Notes: generated by a model not told the origin, from the sequence alone. 32,000 bases of DNA from Thermofilum adornatum (GCF_000446015.1 NC_022093.1:1140001-1172000), one strand, 5' to 3'; shown: positions 7,506-25,639, counted from the first letter of the stretch. Program-made: numbers and translations.

Positions 7506-8579
7506 TTAAATGTCGGTGACGCCGTCCTCTGTTATAGCGAAGGCGACCTCTTTCTCAGCATGCTTGGGGCTGTCTATGATTCTTGCTATACGTTTGCCCT
7601 CTTTTGCCTTCCTGAGCCAAATCCTGTATGTACATCCATGAGCCATTATGTTTCCGCCTGCTGGCTTCATGGGGTTTCCGAAGAAGATGTCCGGTGACGA
7701 CATAACTTGGTTAGTAACAACAACGGCCAGGTTGTATAGGCTAGCAAGCCGGTGAAGCTGGCTAATATGCCTGTTGAGTTTTTGTTGTCTTGATGCCAGG
7801 TTTTCGCGGCCTGGATATTCAGCTCTGAAGTGATTAATGAGGCTGTCGACAATTATCAGTCTAATATTCTGACTTTCAATGTATTTCTTAGCCTCATCTA
7901 CCAAGAGCATTTGGTGATCGCTATTGTATGCTCTTGCGTAGATTATGTTTTCTAGTGCCTTTTCTGGGTCTAGCTGTTTTGCCCTTGCTATCTGTATTAT
8001 TCTCTCCGGCCTGAAGGTGCCCTCTGTGTCTATGTATAGTGCCCTAGCGTTGAGGCCTCCCTTCTCCTTCGGTAGCTGGACCATCACCGCTAGCTGGTGG
8101 CAAATCTGAGTCTTACCAGCACCAAACTCACCAATCAGCTCAGTAATACTACCAACCTCAACACCACCCTCCAACAAATCATCCAAACTACGAACACCAG
8201 TACTGATGTATTCAAGGTTCTTCCTCTTTTCAAAAAGCACCCTAGCAGTGATGAATTCCTCTCCTCTATTAACCAGTTTCTGTGCAGCCCGGATTATGGC
8301 TATGGCCCTCTCTTCAGAACCAAGGACAACAGCTAGCTCATGTGCAGAAGCAAACGCAAGGTCACGCACAGAGTAGAAACCAGCCGCCCTAAGCTTCTGA
8401 GCAGTGATTCTCCCCACGCCATCTAGGTCCTCTAGTCTTATTTCTCCCTCGGGAACTTCCTCTTCAGACGGTTCAAGTGGTTCTTCTTCCAAAATCTCCT
8501 CTGCTAGCTTATCTGCATCAATCTCTTCTTCAAATGTTTTTTCCTCTTCTTCAACCTTTACCTTTTCTTTCTTAGGCAT
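7506..8579 (-). CDS. radA: DNA repair and recombination protein RadA (canonical), with a ~46-aa acidic N-terminal extension
   Basis: HhH N-domain ([19 protein letters not shown]), polymerisation motif GEEFITA, Walker [10 protein letters not shown], Walker B LIIVDS, and the L2 region through KPAGGN. Confidence 0.95.
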
Positions 8580-8699: not shown

Positions 8700-9227
8700 A
8701 TGCGTCAAGAACAGGTATATGGCGAACTCCACGAAGCCCTAAAGACTATAGTGAGCTATCTTTCCGAAGAGTGGAACAAACGTAACAACAGGGCGACACC
8801 TAGCGGCGTTCTCTCTGGTATTGGGTTTGACCAGATAGATCCATACTTAATTACCTACGGCTTTATTGTCAGGGGTCTCATCGAGAGAAGGAATCGAAAA
8901 ACCTATTTAACAAGGGTTGGCGAGGAAGCCCTTAATAGAATCATAGAGATAGCCGAGATTATCAGAGAAGACTCTTTGTTTCCAGACCTTGACAGAGGAA
9001 AAATCCTGGGGGCAACACTGTATGCTCTCTATGATTGGCAAAACAGCTATAGGACGGGGGAAGAATACTTGCAGTATCTAGAAAAGATCAAGGCTAAGAT
9101 CTTGGAAATTAAAAAGACTTCAGAGGAAAAGTTTAAGCTTCTAGCAGTCCTCCTGCCTCGAATAAAGCTGGATGAAGGCTACACGCTCGAGAAACTCCTA
9201 GAAGGCGTCCTGCATTTGGAAACTTAG
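8700..9227 (+). CDS. Hypothetical protein (175 aa), mostly helical, possibly winged-helix containing
   Basis: ATG-started ORF with A/T-rich upstream sequence (AAATAAAGCTTAATTAG). No motif recognised. Confidence 0.5.
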   Translation: MRQEQVYGELHEALKTIVSYLSEEWNKRNNRATPSGVLSGIGFDQIDPYLITYGFIVRGLIERRNRKTYLTRVGEEALNRIIEIAEIIREDSLFPDLDRGKILGATLYALYDWQNSYRTGEEYLQYLEKIKAKILEIKKTSEEKFKLLAVLLPRIKLDEGYTLEKLLEGVLHLET

Positions 9228-9284: not shown

Positions 9285-10316
9285 TTGCAGAAACTAAGAG
9301 AACTTGAATACAACGCTTTAAAGTATGCAGTTGTAGCGAGGAAATACATCGACATTGCAAGAAGCCTAAAGACAACTCCGTCCTACGTGTCTAAACTTAT
9401 CACGGGTCTTGAAAGGAAAGGAATAAAGATCTACGGCAAATTTGACTACGCCTCCATAGGTCTAATAGAATACCTCATGCTTTTACCCTTCTCCCAAGAC
9501 ATAATGGAAAAAAACATACCATACATAATACAGAAAACTACCCTAATAAAATCCAAGCAAAAAATACTCATGCTGAGAGCACTAATCCCAGATGGAGCAC
9601 AAAAAGACTTTGCAGACATACTACAAGCAGACCCCAATCAAATGTGGAGGATAACAAGCTTCTCTTGGAACCCCTACTCTTCTCCGCTTACAGTCTACAT
9701 GCACGGCAAAATAACATCCAATACTCTACAGCTTACAGAGCTCCTAGAAACCAGAAAATTGGTACATACGCCGCCACCGAAGCAACAACAGAAAATAGAC
9801 AATCTAGACCTCGAGCTAGTAGCAGAGTTTACGAGGAACCCCTTCCTAAAGCTATCACAACTAGCCCAAAGAAAAAACATGAAAAACCAGACGCTAAACT
9901 ATCACTATACCAGCCACGTTAAGCCCATAAGACTAGAAAACGAGGTAATAATTAACCCACCCCCCGGATATGCAACAAGGCTACTACAAATAAAGACAAC
10001 GCGGGGACACGAAGAACACATAGCATGGGCACTCTCAAGCCTACACTACGTCCAAAACACTTACGCCCTGACCGGCACAGGAACAGTCTATACGTTTCTC
10101 TTCCCAGACCCCTACGAAGAAAAGCAACTAGCAGAAACCCTCTATACGTGTACAGCTATACTAGATTTTACGCTGTTTGGCTATGTCACAGCCAACAAAC
10201 GCTACACAGTTCCCTTTGGAGACATTATTGCAAATGGTAGATACAACATAGGAATAGTATATGAAGCACTACATGTACACCGCAGAAAAGCGAACTACGA
10301 CATATATGAGCTCTAG
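9285..10316 (+). CDS. Putative transcription regulator with two Lrp/AsnC-like HTH modules in tandem (343 aa)
   Basis: Two HTH-like segments: YIDIARSLKTTPSYVSKLITGLERKG, and LDLELVAEFTRNPFLKLSQLAQRKNMKNQTLNYHY. Each is followed by a ~100-aa beta-rich region. The only in-frame start after the upstream stop is TTG 9285. A TATA-like A/T run lies at 9241-9258. Confidence 0.5.
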   Translation: MQKLRELEYNALKYAVVARKYIDIARSLKTTPSYVSKLITGLERKGIKIYGKFDYASIGLIEYLMLLPFSQDIMEKNIPYIIQKTTLIKSKQKILMLRALIPDGAQKDFADILQADPNQMWRITSFSWNPYSSPLTVYMHGKITSNTLQLTELLETRKLVHTPPPKQQQKIDNLDLELVAEFTRNPFLKLSQLAQRKNMKNQTLNYHYTSHVKPIRLENEVIINPPPGYATRLLQIKTTRGHEEHIAWALSSLHYVQNTYALTGTGTVYTFLFPDPYEEKQLAETLYTCTAILDFTLFGYVTANKRYTVPFGDIIANGRYNIGIVYEALHVHRRKANYDIYEL

Positions 10317-10326
10317 CGTAGCATTC

Positions 10327-10860
10327 CTACGTATTCTTTTCTCTACGAATAATCTTGGGAGCATAGAGCAATGCATCTAGAGCCTTCTCCTCCCAATCAC
10401 TCACTAAGACAAGGCGATGTGGCGTCTCAACGTAGACGACGGGCTTTACTCCGAAGTTTAGGAAAACTAGGAGCCCATATACGCTGGCCTGTGTTGCCTC
10501 AGAGAGCTTTACCTCATCATAGCTTTTTACCTCTACAATCTTATAAGGCACCAAAGACCTGAAACATATAGTATCGGCCACACCATGAACCCAGCCAAAC
10601 CTAAAAAGCCATGCCAGAGGAAAAGGAATACACACGTCTCTATACTCTAGTATCCAGTCGACATCGCCAAATATACTTGAATGTACCCTGAGACCTTCCT
10701 CATAGCCCTTGCCCTTGCCTCTAGCCAGCCTCAAAGAAATCTCTGTAACACTAATTTTTGGGTCTCTTGACACCTTGGCCTTCTCGAACCTATTAATAGC
10801 AGTCCTAAGTAACCTATATCCGTATACAAGAGCCTCTTCAGGCATCCCAGACTCCATCAT
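10327..10860 (-). CDS. PD-(D/E)xK nuclease of the RecB/Cas4-like type, lacking the Cas4 Cys cluster
   Basis: Ordered motifs GDVD ... IVEVKS ... TQASVYG (D, ExK, QxxxY). There is no C-terminal CxxC. Start is ambiguous: ATG 10860/10857 gives a 23-nt overlap with the upstream gene, and ATG 10845 gives an ATGCCTGA overlap. The ORF-track start at 10911 lies deep inside the RadA paralog. Confidence 0.55.
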   Translation of the reverse strand: MMESGMPEEALVYGYRLLRTAINRFEKAKVSRDPKISVTEISLRLARGKGKGYEEGLRVHSSIFGDVDWILEYRDVCIPFPLAWLFRFGWVHGVADTICFRSLVPYKIVEVKSYDEVKLSEATQASVYGLLVFLNFGVKPVVYVETPHRLVLVSDWEEKALDALLYAPKIIRREKNT

Positions 10861-11785
10861 CCTTGATGGTGAACTGTGCAGACGCACCTTTTGCCAACCT
10901 AGGCGAGTCAAGGACTTCCATAAGCCAGGAGTCGCCTGCTTTCTTCAAGAAAAACCTATGCGTAGAGGCGTGTGCTATAATGTTTCCACCTGCTGGCAAC
11001 TTAACGGCCACGCCCCAGCTACTCGGCACAGAGACAACCTGGTTAGTTATAACTATCAACAAGTCGTAAAGCCTGCTAAGCCTCTTGAGCCAGTCCAAAA
11101 CATAGTTTATCCTCTGCTGACGCATCGCAAGCCATTCTCGCCCCCTAAATTGTGCCCTATAAAGCGCTATAACAGAGTCTATAATGACTAGTTTTACGCC
11201 CTGTCTTAAATACGGCTTCAAGCCTCTTACAACAAGCTCTTCCAGCTCATCTACATTTATAGGTCTAGCCACGAATACATTCTCGAGCGGATCTTTAACG
11301 CCAAATCTTTCTGCAATCTTCGTTACCCTCTCGGGACTAAACGTCCCCTCAGTGTCAATGTAGATAGTTTTTCCTCCCAGCCCACCTTTCCCAGGCGGCA
11401 ACTGTGCAGTTACGGAGAGCTGGTGACAGAGTTGTGTCTTTCCGGAACCATATTCACCCGCAAACTCGTAGATTTCCTGAACAACAAGACCACCCCCAAG
11501 CAACTCGTCGATACCACTTACACCAGTGGAGAGAGTGTCTCGCCCAGAAATCTGGGAAGCATATTCGTCTCCCTTCTGGACACTTACTTCCCACCGGGCA
11601 AGCCTTCTAGCAGTTCTAACTAGCCTAAGCGCTCTCTCGAATTCTATGCCAGCTATTTCTTCAAGCTCCTCAGGGTTGAAAAGCAACAGCTCCTCAACGG
11701 TATCTATCCCAGCATTCTTGAGCCTAGAAATTGTTACCTTGCCTATGCCCTCTTCTTTTCCTAGCTCTTCAATAGGAAGCGGCAT
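10838..11785 (-). CDS. Full-length RadA paralog (HhH N-domain plus RecA core), 315 aa
   Basis: HhH-like ISRLKNAGIDTVEELL, Walker A GEYGSGKTQ, Walker B LVIIDS, and NQV...LPAGGN. By eye it is roughly 45-50% identical to the canonical RadA core. ATG 11785 is preceded by GGTGAG 6-11 nt upstream, so I prefer it over GTG 11809. Confidence 0.85.
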   Translation of the reverse strand: MPLPIEELGKEEGIGKVTISRLKNAGIDTVEELLLFNPEELEEIAGIEFERALRLVRTARRLARWEVSVQKGDEYASQISGRDTLSTGVSGIDELLGGGLVVQEIYEFAGEYGSGKTQLCHQLSVTAQLPPGKGGLGGKTIYIDTEGTFSPERVTKIAERFGVKDPLENVFVARPINVDELEELVVRGLKPYLRQGVKLVIIDSVIALYRAQFRGREWLAMRQQRINYVLDWLKRLSRLYDLLIVITNQVVSVPSSWGVAVKLPAGGNIIAHASTHRFFLKKAGDSWLMEVLDSPRLAKGASAQFTIKDDGVWDA

Positions 11786-12338
11786 CGCCCTCACCACACG
11801 GCTTCCCATCGACGAAACACTTACCCCTACCCTCTATCTTCTCACATGCAAATGTCTTTACGAAACTCCACATGTTTTCGGTCTCCCTGTCCCCATACAC
11901 TATTATCGGGACCCTGTACACCTTTGCTATACGCGACAATATGTCATAGGAGTACATTAACCCCTCATGAACCCACCTAGTAAACCTTTTGTGGCTATCC
12001 TCGACAACGATGGGCACACGCTTCTTGTCAAGTTCACGGGGCAGGTCGAAAAGCAGGTACTCTAGGTACTCCTCGTCAAGAAAAGCTGGCAAGTATGCTC
12101 CACCAGCTATCTCCAACTGTGTCCCCCTAACATGCGTCAAGCCTGGAGACAAGACGTGTTTTTCCCCGCAAAAGGAAACCTCTAGCCGGATTGGAGAAAA
12201 AACAACCACAGTGTTCTCGGACAGAAATGTCAACTCCCCAGCAACGTCTCCCATAAACTTCTCAATTTCTTCTCTTCGAAAAACCTTGAGATGGCTAAGG
12301 GAAAAAACCTCTTTCCCAACAACAACCTGTCTACTCAT
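11769..12338 (-). CDS. Hypothetical protein (189 aa), orphan member of the RadA-paralog operon
   Basis: The ATG at 12338 overlaps the upstream stop (ATGA) and is preceded by GAGGGTG. Its 3' end overlaps the RadA-paralog start by 17 nt. No motif recognised, apart from an acidic patch (FLDEEYLEYLLFD) and a C-terminal Cys/Gly-rich tail. Confidence 0.6.
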   Translation of the reverse strand: MSRQVVVGKEVFSLSHLKVFRREEIEKFMGDVAGELTFLSENTVVVFSPIRLEVSFCGEKHVLSPGLTHVRGTQLEIAGGAYLPAFLDEEYLEYLLFDLPRELDKKRVPIVVEDSHKRFTRWVHEGLMYSYDILSRIAKVYRVPIIVYGDRETENMWSFVKTFACEKIEGRGKCFVDGKPCGEGDAASY

Positions 12339-12727
12339 CCAAACACCCTCCCACGGCTCCTACTAGCTAAAACCTCAAGCCACGGATTATCACGAAGATA
12401 ACTTGGAAGCTCGCTACTTGTTTCAATGCCCATTTCGGGCCCGCTCGATCTCTCAGGTAGCCTGGAAGCAAGAGGCTCTCTTGGAGTAATCTCCTCTCCA
12501 TAGATAACCCTCCTAGCGGCGAGAATGTGACGATATGCCTCTAAACCTTTATGGCTAAGAGAAACAAGTTGAAACCTCCCCTTCTTCTGGTAGTTTATCA
12601 AGCCATACTTTCCCAAGAGATCAACGACCTCTCTTGCCTTCCTATTGTTCCTAGAGATCTCGCTTAGCAGGACTTCTGATTCGCCAATCCTCGTAAGCCA
12701 GCCTACAATACGTGTAAACTCATCCAC
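12335..12727 (-). CDS. Winged-HTH protein (N-terminal ~75 aa) with a disordered Ser/Pro/Glu-rich tail; first gene of the RadA-paralog operon
   Basis: MarR/archaeal-wHTH-like pattern: LLSEISRNNRKAREVVDLLGKYGLINYQKKGRFQLVSLSHKG. GTG start at 12727, with CAAATATAAATTTG about 25 nt upstream on the coding strand. Confidence 0.6.
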   Translation of the reverse strand: MDEFTRIVGWLTRIGESEVLLSEISRNNRKAREVVDLLGKYGLINYQKKGRFQLVSLSHKGLEAYRHILAARRVIYGEEITPREPLASRLPERSSGPEMGIETSSELPSYLRDNPWLEVLASRSRGRVFG

Positions 12728-12825
12728 AATATAACTTTATTATCTTCAAATATAAATTTGTTATCATCCTGCATAACATAGTTATACAAGAAAACTATAA
12801 GATAGAAGTCGTCATAACGAGCTAC
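12728..12825. promoter_or_regulatory. Divergent promoter region with TATA-like elements and repeated ATAAC/GTTAT pentamers
   Basis: AAATATAAAT at ~12749-12758 could serve the minus operon, and AAAACTATAAGATAG at ~12791-12805 could serve tmk. The array GTTAT(12760)-N8-ATAAC(12773)-N3-GTTAT(12781) has extra ATAAC copies at 12731 and 12814. Confidence 0.45.
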
Positions 12826-13605
12826 ATGAACCAGTCAGTAGGAGAAAAAATATTCTGCCCCCACTGCGGAGACTACATTACCCCAAAAATCGAAAGAACA
12901 GCCACACCAACAGGTGAATTAATAATAGAATACTATTGCCCCAGACATGGACTAATAAAAACTGAGAAAAAGAAAAACTACGGCGGAAACCCAGTCAAGA
13001 TACCCGGAGGCCTCTACATAGCCCTCGAAGGAATAGATGGCTCTGGAAAAACAACACAAGCATCCCTGCTATACGAGTACCTCACAAACAAGGGCTACAG
13101 TGTGATTGTTGTAAGGGAACCATGGGTACAAGCAATAAAGGAAGTTCTTTACAAATATAACCTGGACGTCGAGGCAGAAGTCTACCTTTTTGCGGCAGAC
13201 AGGATTATACTTCAACGAGAAATAGTCTTACCTGCGCTAAGCGAGGGAAAAATAGTTATCTCTGACAGAACCCTTTATGCTAGCCTCGCATACCAGTCAT
13301 CCAGAGGGGCAGACCAAGACTTTATACGTAGAGTAAACAAATTCGTAAAGCCGCCCGACATAGTCTTCCTTTTAGACATACCAGTAGAGAAGGCCATGGA
13401 GAGACTCAGGAATAGGTCTTCCCTCACTCGCTTCGAGGACCCAACATACATGTACAGGGTAAGAGAAAAATACCTAAAACTGGCGGAGGAGGAAAAAGAC
13501 AAGTTCATAGTTCTAGACGCGTCAGGCACAATAGAAGAAGTCTACACGCAACTCGTAGACAAAGTTGAAGAAATCCTACAAAATTTAAAAGCAAACAAAA
13601 CATAG
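12826..13605 (+). CDS. tmk: Thymidylate (dTMP) kinase with a ~60-aa N-terminal zinc-ribbon extension
   Basis: P-loop LEGIDGSGKTT, a DR(I/Y)-type motif (AADRIIL) and LID-region pattern. The N-terminus carries CPHCG...(24 aa)...CPRHG. Confidence 0.9.
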   Translation: MNQSVGEKIFCPHCGDYITPKIERTATPTGELIIEYYCPRHGLIKTEKKKNYGGNPVKIPGGLYIALEGIDGSGKTTQASLLYEYLTNKGYSVIVVREPWVQAIKEVLYKYNLDVEAEVYLFAADRIILQREIVLPALSEGKIVISDRTLYASLAYQSSRGADQDFIRRVNKFVKPPDIVFLLDIPVEKAMERLRNRSSLTRFEDPTYMYRVREKYLKLAEEEKDKFIVLDASGTIEEVYTQLVDKVEEILQNLKANKT

Positions 13606-13613
13606 TATATCAT

Positions 13614-14198
13614 ATGAGACGTGGAAGCGCAACAAGCATAGTTCTCGTCATAGTCATCATTGCAAGCCTAGCATTCTACGCCGGGTTCCGCCTGGGCCAA
13701 ACCCAGACCCAACAAATAACTGCGCAAGCTCCACAGCAACCTGTACCGCAAGGGGAATGCATAAAGCTTGAAATAATCAACGATGATGACTACTACCCCA
13801 AACTTTTAGACTTACTCTCCAAGGCTAACAAATCCATTTACATTTCAATGTTTGAATTCAAAAGCGACACAGACGAGGTGGCAAAAGTCCTCGAATTACT
13901 AATCTCTAAAGCAAAGAAAGGAGTAGACGTGAAAGTCGTCCTAGAAAACACGATAGACGAGAACGAGCTAACGTATAGACGTCTCCTAGACAACGGGGTT
14001 CCAGTAAGATACGATACAAGATCTAGGACTACACATACAAAACTCATCATAATAGACGGCTACATAGTTATCGTAGGTTCCCACAACTGGAGCTACTCGG
14101 CGTTCATGAGGAACCATGAGGCAAGCGTAGCAATATACGATGAAAACATAGCCAAACAAGAGACAAAGTACTTCATGCAGATATACAGCGGCAACTAA
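13614..14198 (+). CDS. Single-HKD phospholipase D superfamily protein (Nuc-endonuclease-like size) with an N-terminal membrane anchor
   Basis: Complete HxK(x4)D(x6)GSxN motif: HTKLIIIDGYIVIVGSHN, with His codon at 14034. N-terminal hydrophobic helix SIVLVIVIIASLAFYAGF. It starts 8 nt after the tmk stop. Confidence 0.85.
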   Translation: MRRGSATSIVLVIVIIASLAFYAGFRLGQTQTQQITAQAPQQPVPQGECIKLEIINDDDYYPKLLDLLSKANKSIYISMFEFKSDTDEVAKVLELLISKAKKGVDVKVVLENTIDENELTYRRLLDNGVPVRYDTRSRTTHTKLIIIDGYIVIVGSHNWSYSAFMRNHEASVAIYDENIAKQETKYFMQIYSGN

Positions 14199-24251: not shown

Positions 24252-25259
24252 TTACTCGTTTTGCATGTCTATTGTTGTCTCCAAGATGTCTGTTCCATAT
24301 TCGAGGATTCTCCTGTAGCTTCCAATGATGCTTCTAATCGTTGACACTTCTTCTGGGTGTTCCTGGGACAGCTTCCTGAATATTTCATTTTCAAAACTCT
24401 TTATCTCGACAGCATCCACGTCTAGTAGCTTGTTTGCGGTATCTTTATCACGGCCCATGAATGCCGAGAGAGCCGCCTTCACAAACTGTGCAGTTTTGTC
24501 GGACAATGCTACTAGGTCTTTAGCTATCCCCTTCTTGTCCTTTAGTTCTTCTATTGTTAAGGCTATAGAGACTGCGCGGTCCCCTATTCTTTCGAGGTTC
24601 TTTAAAACCATTGCATAGTGCAACACCTCATGAGGTCTCTGGAGCCCGATTTCTTCCAGGCTTATTATGCCTCTAAGCCCCGTGTGAAGTTGCCGAAGCC
24701 CGTATAGATAAAGTTTGTCAATAATGTCGTCTCGGGAAGAAATATCGCTAGGCAAGATTTTTTCATTGTTCTCGAGGGCGAGTCTCACGTCTGACAACAT
24801 GCTGAGGGAAACATCGAGCATTTTCATAAGTATTGAAGAAATAGGTAGATCCTCTACGTTGACAAGGATCTGTAGAACCATTTCCCTGGAATCCTCATGA
24901 AGAATCTCTACGCCTATAAGCTTCCTGGTAATGATGTCTCGAATCGCTTTCTTAAACTCCAGGTCCTCACTGGGAAACACAACCTTGATAGTCTTATAGC
25001 CAGTAAGGTACTTCGACATAATCTCCCTCAGGACAGAGCCCTGGCTCATTCCCTTTTTGACCCGTATCTCTGTAGATGCTAGTGGCTCAGGCCTCTTAGT
25101 ACTGGGGAAAAGCCTTATTGAACCATCGCTTTCAAGGGATAAAACCACGAGGCTTCCCTTATCTATGTTCATTTTTTCTGCCCACTCCTTGGGTATAGAC
25201 ACTATGAACGTCGAGCCCCCTGTCAGCTGTACCCTTCTAACGATTTTATTTGTTGCCAT
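24252..25259 (-). CDS. PhoU-domain regulator with an N-terminal AbrB/SpoVT-type DNA-binding domain (archaeal phosphate-uptake-regulator-like)
   Basis: SpoVT/AbrB pattern VRRVQLTGGSTFIVSIPKEWAEKMNIDKGS, followed by two PhoU-like helical repeats (...ERIGDRAVSIA...). I prefer ATG 25259 because the promoter-like AAATTTATAG (minus strand, 25286-25277) lies inside the longer 25304 version. Confidence 0.75.
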   Translation of the reverse strand: MATNKIVRRVQLTGGSTFIVSIPKEWAEKMNIDKGSLVVLSLESDGSIRLFPSTKRPEPLASTEIRVKKGMSQGSVLREIMSKYLTGYKTIKVVFPSEDLEFKKAIRDIITRKLIGVEILHEDSREMVLQILVNVEDLPISSILMKMLDVSLSMLSDVRLALENNEKILPSDISSRDDIIDKLYLYGLRQLHTGLRGIISLEEIGLQRPHEVLHYAMVLKNLERIGDRAVSIALTIEELKDKKGIAKDLVALSDKTAQFVKAALSAFMGRDKDTANKLLDVDAVEIKSFENEIFRKLSQEHPEEVSTIRSIIGSYRRILEYGTDILETTIDMQNE

Positions 25260-25639
25260 TTCACTCAATAAAGACTCTATAAATTTATATTTATATTTTT
25301 TCATACATAAATGCGAGAACCAATACCTTGCCCTACAATAGACTGATAAAACTGTTCAAATTATTCTTATACAAAACTAGAATATGTATTTTTACGAGGT
25401 GAAGATTCATTTAATAGCGATGTTACTAGAACTAAAAGGGAGTGGAACCCAAGGCTACCTATCAATTTTATTGGGACAATTTTTCCCTTTACATACTATA
25501 AACTTACCACATTTAGAAGTTTCGCAAATCCTCAATACTTACTGATAAAAGAACTACAATGAATGTATGATTTCCCGTATTAAGAAAAGGTATTAAGGAT
25601 TGTATATATGATTTTTTGTATATCTATATTCAGAGATAC
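25260..25639. promoter_or_regulatory. Long A/T-rich divergent control region between the PhoU-like regulator and the hydrogenase operon
   Basis: 380 nt without a convincing ORF. GTATATATGA at 25602-25611 is 29 nt upstream of ATG 25640. AAATTTATAG on the minus strand is 17 nt upstream of ATG 25259. Confidence 0.45.

Follow-up and report, generated by a model that had tools for sequence, protein, structure and literature searches.

The stretch of DNA examined here, called the window in the following, comprises 32,000 nucleotides from Thermofilum adornatum (NC_022093.1, 1140001 to 1172000). Between positions 10327 and 12727 its minus strand carries four open reading frames (ORFs), which had been delineated in a first-pass annotation and were found again at the same coordinates. 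In reading direction they are designated O1, O2, RadA2, and O4, and are predicted to encode a winged helix-turn-helix (wHTH) protein, a RecA-fold protein, a full-length paralogue of the recombinase RadA, and a small nuclease (Table 1). Together they form a candidate recombination module centred on RadA2, the parts of which recur in rearranged form at other loci.

All junctions between the four genes overlap, as had been stated before, and this could be confirmed by reading the sequence. O1 and O2 share the tetranucleotide ATGA (12335-12338). The ATG of RadA2 at 11785 is closely preceded by GGTGAGGG and lies within the end of O2, resulting in an overlap of 17 nucleotides (11769-11785), and the stop of RadA2 overlaps with the start of O4 by the 8 nucleotides ATGCCTGA (10838-10845). 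Alternative starts are an upstream ATG at 11809 for RadA2 and an ATG at 10860 for O4; for RadA2 the start at 11785 is favoured because the orthologues begin with MP(L/I)PIEEL. At the orthologous loci the junctions are equally tight, ranging from a 17-nucleotide overlap to a 5-nucleotide gap, and the four genes are translationally coupled. Between O1 and the divergent tmk gene a TATA-like sequence, AAATTTATATTT, was found by sequence reading at 12748-12759, centred about 26 nucleotides upstream of the GTG of O1. This position suggests a leaderless transcript, and the whole intergenic region is the presumed promoter of the unit, from which one transcript for all four genes would be expected.

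Table 1. Coordinates of the four-gene unit, its presumed promoter region, and context genes in the window.
Feature	Position	Strand	Basis
O1, 130-aa winged-helix protein, GTG start	12335..12727	-	ORF and weak wHTH matches
O2, 189-aa predicted degenerate RecA/RadA-fold protein without Walker A	11769..12338	-	ORF and AlphaFold2/Foldseek/hhalign
RadA2, 315-aa full-length RadA paralogue	10838..11785	-	ORF and Pfam/NCBIfam
O4, 172-aa predicted PD-(D/E)xK nuclease of RecB/Cas4/RecE type	10327..10845	-	ORF and motif alignment
Intergenic region between O1 and tmk (divergent)	12728..12825	-	sequence reading
RadA1, canonical RadA, 357 aa; context, outside operon	7506..8579	-	NF003301, TIGR02236
p175, function-unassigned conserved gene; context	8700..9227	+	co-conservation
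p343, function-unassigned conserved gene, weak MarR/HTH_24 matches; context	9285..10316	+	co-conservation

In a comparison of the window with T. pendens the nonsynonymous divergence (dN) amounted to 0.13 for RadA2, 0.40 for O1, 0.38 for O2, 0.50 for O4, and 0.08 for RadA1. The synonymous divergence (dS) was saturated, and constraint was judged from dN lying far below dS and not from a dN/dS ratio. Because of this large distance between dN and dS and the conservation of all four proteins, the four reading frames are real, constrained genes and not chance ORFs. A decaying tandem duplicate of radA accompanied by hitch-hiking, lineage-specific reading frames of no coherent function might be expected to lie close to radA1, as RadA2 does, and to have neighbours like these, three of the four proteins being without a family assignment. 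Such an origin is nevertheless highly improbable given the same low dN values, the conservation of the four proteins across genera, the invariant catalytic motifs of RadA2 and O4, and the conserved overlapping junctions.

The classification of RadA2 as a full-length RadA paralogue agrees with the first proposal in every motif which had been listed. Pfam yielded matches to Rad51 (E 1e-65) and to HHH_5 (E 2.6e-8). In an alignment to RadA1, PfRadA, SsoRadA, and hRAD51 the protein shows the Walker A motif GEYGSGKTQ, the Walker B motif LVIIDS, TNQ, and PAGGN, and it also keeps the DTEGTF glutamate, the L1 arginines, an L2 loop of normal length, PAGGN-AHA, and DSP. With the NCBIfam model NF003301 it scores 286.8 bits, above the cut-off of 259, and with TIGR02236 263.6 bits, below the cut-off of 361; RadA1 is above both cut-offs with 479 and 451 bits, respectively. 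By model RadA2 is not RadB (TIGR02237, 111.9 versus a cut-off of 172), models of KaiC type gave weak matches only, and the complete N-terminal, dsDNA-binding helix-hairpin-helix (HhH) domain is present, unlike in the core-only RadB and aRadC proteins.

The most conspicuous change in RadA2 concerns the FxxA polymerisation site. The phenylalanine of this motif is the knob by which one RadA or RAD51 protomer binds to the next, as known from structural work on RadA and on RAD51-BRC. The site reads VQKG in RadA2 as compared to FMRA in PfRadA, FTTA in hRAD51, and FITA in RadA1, and the consensus of the RadA2 family at this place is [VAI]-x-x-[GAL], the phenylalanine being lost. Judged by its motifs RadA2 should be intact as a catalyst but could not donate a phenylalanine for polymerisation. 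RadA1, whose proximity had gone unmentioned in the first-pass annotation, lies only 2.2 kb away and is 42% identical to RadA2. The two genes occur side by side, and RadA2 forms a separate long-branch clade apart from the RadA1 proteins of the Thermofilaceae, so RadA2 is not the RadA orthologue of the lineage. The RadA2 clade comprises at least 120 clusters at 90% identity, and all matches to it which bear the name of an organism are from Thermofilaceae or an unclassified Thermoprotei/Thermoproteales metagenome-assembled genome. As a separate observation, the HhH domain of RadA1 is preceded by about 45 additional, glutamate-rich residues, an N-terminal extension of unusual length which RadA2 does not have.

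The 189 amino acid protein O2 had been called an orphan, a description which does not hold in terms of fold. Its AlphaFold2 model has a predicted local distance difference test score (pLDDT) of 71 and is confident at residues 50-182, with low confidence for the N-terminal 49 residues. The top matches of this model in a Foldseek search of the PDB all belong to the RecA family and include UvsX, RadA, RAD51, KaiC, and subunits of BCDX2, with probabilities of about 1.0 and E values of about 5e-4. With hhalign, residues 85-149 could be aligned to the segment of RadA from Walker B to TNQ (E 7e-5, probability 64%). A Walker-B-like strand, VVED, is retained together with the subsequent helix-strand ILSRIAKVYRVPIIVYG, and Walker A (GxxxxGK[ST]) was found in none of the 28 members of the O2 family. 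O2 is predicted from these data to be an ATPase-dead RecA-fold protein, so that the module would hold two members of the RecA family. Sequence relatives of O2 outside the Thermofilaceae were not found, and a PDB sequence-profile search with the O2 alignment gave noise or marginal matches only (HisF, PF0469, and EXO5 in the O2 and O4 searches). Nor did hhalign link O2 to the small AAA+ ATPase p203 described below. A zinc site formed by four cysteines which are invariant in the close orthologues of O2 was considered and rejected, as these cysteines are not kept in the wider family.

O4 had been described as a cysteine-less nuclease resembling RecB and Cas4, and the ordered D, ExK, and QxxxY motifs as well as the lack of a conserved cysteine agree with this. 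The catalytic aspartate, however, had been assigned to the sequence GDVD. The aspartates of GDVD are not invariant across 24 homologues and this assignment was rejected in favour of D91 in the sequence GVAD, which is located 14 residues before E105-V-K107. D91, E105, K107, Q119, and Y123 are invariant among these 24 diverse proteins and, together with H55, are the catalytic candidates. The D..ExK..QxxxY pattern is found in 41 of 42 members of the O4 family, its order is that of RecB/Cas4-type nucleases, and O4 is accordingly classed as a putative nuclease of this type with an intact predicted active site. Since no cysteine is conserved, with members of the family having between 0 and 7 of them, a Cas4-type four-cysteine iron-sulphur cluster is not present. 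The O4 protein of the window has no Pfam match; in the family, 7 of 24 proteins match PDDEXK_1, with an E value of 2e-4 at best, and 2 of 24 match Cas_Cas4, all below threshold, and there are further weak matches to HSDR_N and DUF2800. PADLOC gave a Cas4 match to O4 with an E value of 0.03, and a marginal PDB profile match of the family to EXO5 (E 0.16) aligns all three motifs. The AlphaFold2 model, which is of low confidence, has an alpha-beta-beta-beta-alpha-beta topology, and its best matches in the PDB and BFVD are uniformly of RecE/Cas4/MGME1/RecB type: RecE/Exo VIII, YqaJ-like proteins, Cas4 SSO0001, MGME1, ACE1, AdnA, the DUF83/Cas4 protein of rudiviruses, and RecB-family exonucleases. 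The O4 family is tiny: a search of 1.8 billion proteins yielded only 23 representatives at the level of 50% identity, all in Thermofilaceae-type loci.

For O1 the assignment as a wHTH protein can be retained with moderate confidence. It gave weak matches to DUF6293_C (E 0.04), to PaaX (E 0.0014), and in PADLOC to a CARF-associated wHTH protein (0.005), and hhalign aligned it with 93% probability to a small wHTH family and with 61% to an ArsR-type family from related loci. The most conserved part of O1 is located at its extreme C-terminus, where the protein of the window carries the tail ELPSYLRDNPWLEVLASRSRGR of the type LPSFxRDNPWL. The motif (E)LP[SE][FYW]xx[DG]NPW[LV]x[VI][LI]xxRGR is contained in 23 of 25 dereplicated O1-bearing loci, with NPW missing in L019 and L070, and occurs in no other protein family of these loci. 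It is kept even where the N-terminal half of the protein is a zinc ribbon and not a wHTH domain, and it looks like a docking peptide. In the surveyed RadA2 loci O1 always stands directly before O2 or before p203.

In keeping with the initial proposal of a module, the set of four genes is co-localised in Thermofilum, Infirmifilum, and uncultured Thermofilaceae. The order tmk< O1> O2> RadA2> O4> p343< p175< radA1> is shared by the first two genera and is also found in the type strain T. pendens Hrk5 (CP000505, 960-973 kb, with the module at about 965.7-968.1 kb). Among relatives RadA1 and RadA2 lose similarity to the proteins of the window at a matching pace (94/91, 87/80, and 80/68% identity), a pattern to be expected if both are inherited vertically together.

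A gene-neighbourhood survey of the RadA2 orthologues covered 95 loci from genomes and metagenomes, dereplicated to 53 groups, in which partners were counted at a distance of up to 5 kb from RadA2. The same partners recurred. O4 was near RadA2 in 31 of the 53 groups and immediately downstream in 27, O1 was present in 25 groups, O2 in 22, a protein with a SWIM signature in 12 (CxC...CxHxxA in 9 of 9 sequences), and p203 as well as ParB_N in 4 each. At least one partner was found in 23 of the 27 groups with long flanks. The order of the genes varies considerably: O4 O1 O2 RadA2 in L040 and L050, p327 SWIM O4 O1 O2 RadA2 in L033 (O4 thus being upstream of RadA2 in these three), p387 p327 SWIM RadA2 O4 in L012 and L013, RadA2 O4 ... 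O1 p203 in L051 and L085, and O2< O1< RadA2> O4> with O1 and O2 divergent in L099. The four-gene module as first proposed therefore stands as a conserved set but not as a fixed unit; it represents a single arrangement within a larger network of shuffled genes centred on RadA2, which also takes in the SWIM, small AAA+, and ParB partners and is partly contained in plasmid-like cassettes. That the association survives rearrangement argues for a functional system and is the strongest evidence obtained here.

The SWIM-signature proteins beside RadA2 have a length of 135-166 amino acids with an invariant CxC-x13-14-CTH[IV]AAV (for example L012:4487-4978, L013:4516-4980, L033, L052, L084, and L089), and no match of them to the Pfam SWIM model was reported. 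They are often accompanied by p387 and p327 and usually replace O1-O2; hhalign found no link of the p387 and p327 proteins to O1 or O2. In one Thermofilum species a reading frame of 97 amino acids lies between RadA2 and O4 (L003:9467-9760, also L004, L005, and L023). It resembles the C-terminal end of TnpB/IS200-605 OrfB (...HGGINAALNILVGG...) and disrupts the translational coupling of RadA2 and O4. A full TnpB-like gene of 432 amino acids with a faint match to Cas12f1-like_TNB is located 5 kb upstream of it, and a related population (L022) is without the insert. In the remaining four long-flanked groups RadA2 stands alone, and in three of them it lies between nuo genes and nrdD. NrdD, the anaerobic ribonucleotide reductase encoded beside stand-alone RadA2 (L018:8210-12661, 1483 amino acids), contains intein and LAGLIDADG segments.

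The families of archaeal RadA paralogues known from the literature, RadB and aRadC (Sso2452, Sso0777), consist of the core alone and act mostly as inhibitors in vitro (PMC5928155, PMC8708640). RadA2 shares with RadA the features of a RadA-branch ATPase, i.e. Walker A and B, the catalytic glutamate, TNQ, L1/L2, and PAGGN, along with the N-terminal HhH domain. From RadA itself it differs by not being the orthologue, by its separate clade, and by the lost phenylalanine of FxxA; from RadB and aRadC it differs by its full length and by its coupling to a nuclease and to a P-loop-less RecA-fold protein, which has not been reported for them (PMC8708640, PMC5928155). It is conceivable that RadA2 with O2 serves mainly as a negative regulator or filament-end capper of RadA1, similar to Sso2452/aRadC or RadB, and that the nuclease and the wHTH protein are co-transcribed but mechanistically separate. 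The module adjoins radA1, the archaeal paralogues described so far have an inhibitory effect on RadA reactions in vitro (PMC8708640, PMC5928155), and a RadA2 without the FxxA phenylalanine may accept the polymerisation contact and not donate it. The known inhibitory paralogues are, however, core-only, whereas RadA2 is full length and keeps the HhH domain and the L1/L2 DNA-binding loops, and the linkage to O4 persists across rearranged gene orders, an argument that the nuclease is functionally connected. A mere capping function is quite unlikely on this account.

The window module lies among housekeeping genes encoding Lhr helicase, PolB1-binding protein 2, S25e, RadA1, Tmk, a phospholipase D (PLD)-family protein, ThiN, AlaX, and nuo proteins, and RadA1 keeps synteny with the module at every locus of the window type. 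No tRNA gene, flanking or attachment-site (att)-like repeats, integrase, or compositional break was found in the region of the module. An integrated element around it was considered and rejected on the lack of tRNA, repeats, and a compositional break and on the conserved synteny, and the module appears to be chromosomally fixed here. A different situation is seen in Infirmifilum sp. SLHALR2 (CP182482), in whose genome a 4.4-kb cassette of six genes, ParB_N< wHTH> AAA+(p203)< Zn-ribbon O1-like< RadA2> O4>, occurs twice, at about 0.61 and 1.11 Mb. The two copies (L016:3121-7502 and L017:3172-7502) are about 75-87% identical in DNA and have unrelated flanks; the cassette has either been duplicated or is mobile. 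Other RadA2 loci add a membrane-anchored HerA/DUF87/TrwB-like ATPase, a gene resembling archaeo-eukaryotic primases (AEP), and Csx3. Csx3 (Pfam E 2e-22), a CRISPR ring-nuclease family, is found directly upstream of RadA2 in L051:3995-4324, L085, and L059, together with the HerA/TrwB-like ATPase, the AEP primase-like gene, and ParB. Its presence beside RadA2 could reflect an element-borne anti-CRISPR function.

These cassettes raise the possibility that the module is in origin a self-contained exonuclease and recombinase unit of mobile elements, an archaeal counterpart of Red-alpha/beta, RecET, Sak4, UvsX, or rudiviral gp17-gp19, used by the element for its recombination-dependent replication, its integration, or its repair, and of which the copy in the window would be a domesticated one. 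The most conserved link in the survey is RadA2 directly followed by O4 (27 loci), the best structural matches of O4 are RecE/Exo VIII, YqaJ-like proteins, Cas4, and viral DUF83 exonucleases, and recombination operons of phages and rudiviruses provide a precedent (PMC5928155, PMC5062984). The pair of SLHALR2 cassettes with different flanks and the loci with the HerA/DUF87/TrwB-like ATPase, the AEP primase-like gene, and Csx3 point in the same direction, as does the RadA2 clade, which with its at least 120 clusters is far more diverse than a single-copy family gene. On the other hand the synteny around the window copy is stable across genera and att-like repeats, tRNA, and integrase are lacking, and the basal clade of stand-alone RadA2 is chromosomal, between nuo genes and nrdD. 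Relatives of RadA2 were found neither in the viral contigs of IMG/VR nor in the plasmids of PLSDB, and relatives of O4 neither in PLSDB nor in the phages of INPHARED; only distant haloarchaeal RadA genes matched. An origin in mobile elements is a possibility to be taken seriously, but on balance a doubtful one.

Some of the same neighbours, i.e. an AAA_16/STAND-like ATPase, ParB_N, the HerA-like ATPase, and Csx3, are of the type found in defence islands. If the module served defence or acted against mobile elements, a RecA-like sensor would recognise foreign single-stranded DNA or replication intermediates and, together with O1 and O2, would activate or guide O4 against invading DNA. The fast evolution of the accessory proteins, the modular and shuffled gene content with several copies per genome, and the presence of a nuclease effector would suit this. 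Nothing found supports it positively, however: PADLOC-DB 2.0 gave matches at noise level only (mad8 5.6e-5 on the P-loop, Cas4 0.03, CARF-associated wHTH 0.005), a toxin-like or abortive-infection component is not visible, and RadA2 keeps the complete motif set of a recombinase and does not show sensor-type degeneration. Defence genes are patchy, whereas the module of the window type occurs universally and in synteny beside radA1, in a repair and replication neighbourhood. A role in defence is unlikely for these reasons. Both the mobile-element and the defence explanation share the biochemistry of the recombination module favoured here and differ from it mainly in who benefits.

Scans with Pfam, NCBIfam, PHROG, and PADLOC gave no family-level assignment of O1, O2, O4, p343, and p175. 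The module as a whole can be compared with known systems. The first of these are the eukaryotic Rad51-paralogue complexes, Rad55-Rad57, BCDX2/CX3, and the Shu complexes Csm2-Psy3-Shu1-Shu2 and SWS1-SWSAP1, which, as the module would, bring together a paralogue competent as an ATPase and a RecA-fold subunit without ATPase motifs, O2 corresponding to Csm2/Psy3. In the sister loci a SWIM protein is found beside RadA2, as Shu2/SWS1 partners Rad51 paralogues (PMC6316741, PMC5727457). The module of the window, in contrast, is without a SWIM gene, and the likeness is an architectural one. To our knowledge the eukaryotic Rad51-paralogue and Shu complexes contain neither a nuclease nor a wHTH adaptor.

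The second group are phage and virus modules such as lambda Red exo/beta, RecET, Sak4 with a single-strand-binding protein (SSB), T4 UvsX, and SIRV2 gp17-gp18-gp19, where a recombinase gene is coupled directly to a gene of PD-(D/E)xK exonuclease type and to small DNA-binding accessories (PMC5928155, PMC5062984). Adjacent and co-oriented recombinase and nuclease genes are found here as well, with an 8-nucleotide overlap in the window, and O4 stands immediately downstream of RadA2 in 27 dereplicated loci. In its predicted fold, a model of low confidence, O4 is similar to RecE, to Cas4, and to the DUF83 nuclease of rudiviruses. RadA2 is, however, a full-length ATPase of RadA type and neither a single-strand annealing protein nor a core-only Sak4, an SSB gene is not part of the module, and the window copy is chromosomal and syntenic without relatives in the viral and plasmid collections searched. 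Finally, O4 shares with Cas4/RecB nucleases (PF01930, PF12705) the ordered D, ExK, and QxxxY residues and, in the low-confidence model, the alpha-beta-beta-beta-alpha-beta core, but is without the four-cysteine iron-sulphur cluster, remains below the Pfam thresholds, and is not CRISPR-associated here. The module resembles Rad51-paralogue/Shu complexes and viral exonuclease-recombinase modules at once and is a member of neither. In the literature searched neither the coupling of a nuclease to a full-length paralogue of RadA nor any RadA paralogue of Thermofilum was found to be described. The earlier statement that no described system has such a composition agrees with this and with the lack of PADLOC and PHROG matches, and the module appears to be undescribed.

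The reading favoured here, to which a probability of about one half is given, is that of an accessory homologous-recombination module around RadA2, which couples nuclease processing to a RadA-paralogue complex. In such a module RadA2 and O2 would form a hetero-oligomer of RecA-fold subunits in the manner of Rad55-Rad57, BCDX2, or Csm2-Psy3. This complex would bind single-stranded DNA or a junction of single- and double-stranded DNA in an ATP-dependent way, and would then seed or cap RadA1 filaments or itself pair strands. O4 would perform the nuclease step, by 5'-end resection or flap trimming, and make or tidy the single-stranded substrate. O1 would target the complex to DNA, might dock on a partner via its LPSFxRDNPWL tail, and may also autoregulate the operon. 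The module of the window would be a fixed chromosomal part of a DNA-repair neighbourhood with Lhr, PolB1-binding protein 2, radA1, and tmk, and related copies would travel in plasmid-like cassettes.

Several points weigh against this reading. The RadA2-O2 complex is an inference, as are the polarity of the O4 nuclease and the role given to the O1 tail. The sequence link between O2 and RadA is modest (hhalign probability 52-64%, the lower value being obtained with a broader O2 alignment), the model of O4 is of low confidence (pLDDT 62), and its structural matches are weak (E 1e-3 to 3e-2). Some RadA2 genes stand alone (L018, L054, L074, and L060), so the partners are not obligatory. By dN the rate of evolution of the accessory proteins is 3-4 times that of RadA2, and some members of the family reside in mobile-looking cassettes with ParB, the AEP primase-like gene, the HerA/TrwB-like ATPase, and Csx3; both features fit element-borne or conflict roles as well as host repair. 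A more far-reaching form of the recombination reading is put forward only tentatively and is itself rather improbable. It holds that Thermofilaceae encode a prokaryotic counterpart of the eukaryotic Rad51-paralogue/Shu-type mediators, in which an FxxA-non-donating RadA paralogue and the P-loop-less O2, or the SWIM protein in sister loci, would be recruited by the peptide of a wHTH adaptor and be physically coupled to an end-processing nuclease.

Some further genes of the window deserve mention. p175 and p343, located between radA1 and the module, are transcribed convergently to O4. They are co-conserved with the window-type architecture only, and neither has a match at family level in Pfam, NCBIfam, or PDB sequences. 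On the other side of the module tmk (12826-13605, plus strand) encodes a thymidylate kinase-type protein, Tmk, with a zinc-ribbon-like N-terminal extension of about 60 amino acids (CPHCG ... CPRHG), which judged by length is conserved in the orthologues of T. pendens and Infirmifilum; we know of no such extension in typical Tmk proteins. Directly downstream of tmk a PLD-family protein (PLDc_2, Nuc-like; 13614-14198, plus strand) with a predicted N-terminal membrane helix is encoded. At nearly every window-type locus its gene keeps synteny with the module, and the protein may be a nuclease or a phospholipase. Farther away, at 24252-25304 on the minus strand, a protein of 350 amino acids was found in which a DNA-binding domain of AbrB/MazE type is fused to two PhoU domains.

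Recombination mediators of archaea are poorly understood, only the core-only RadB and aRadC proteins having been characterised. While the reach of the present finding is limited by its narrow range, a single archaeal family, the module is a genetically defined four-protein unit from cultivated organisms with thermostable proteins (T. pendens, Infirmifilum spp.). It would make testable how paralogue complexes nucleate, cap, or replace the filament of the main recombinase, how nuclease processing is handed over to strand exchange, and whether archaea have a parallel to the partnership of SWIM protein and paralogue in Shu. If the reading as a counterpart of the Shu-type mediators were true, it would provide an archaeal precedent, or an independent invention, of the control of a recombinase by a SWIM protein plus paralogue, in a form simple enough to be reconstituted. 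The occurrence of the RadA2-O4 core pair in plasmid-like cassettes in addition bears on the recombination of mobile elements in hyperthermophiles.

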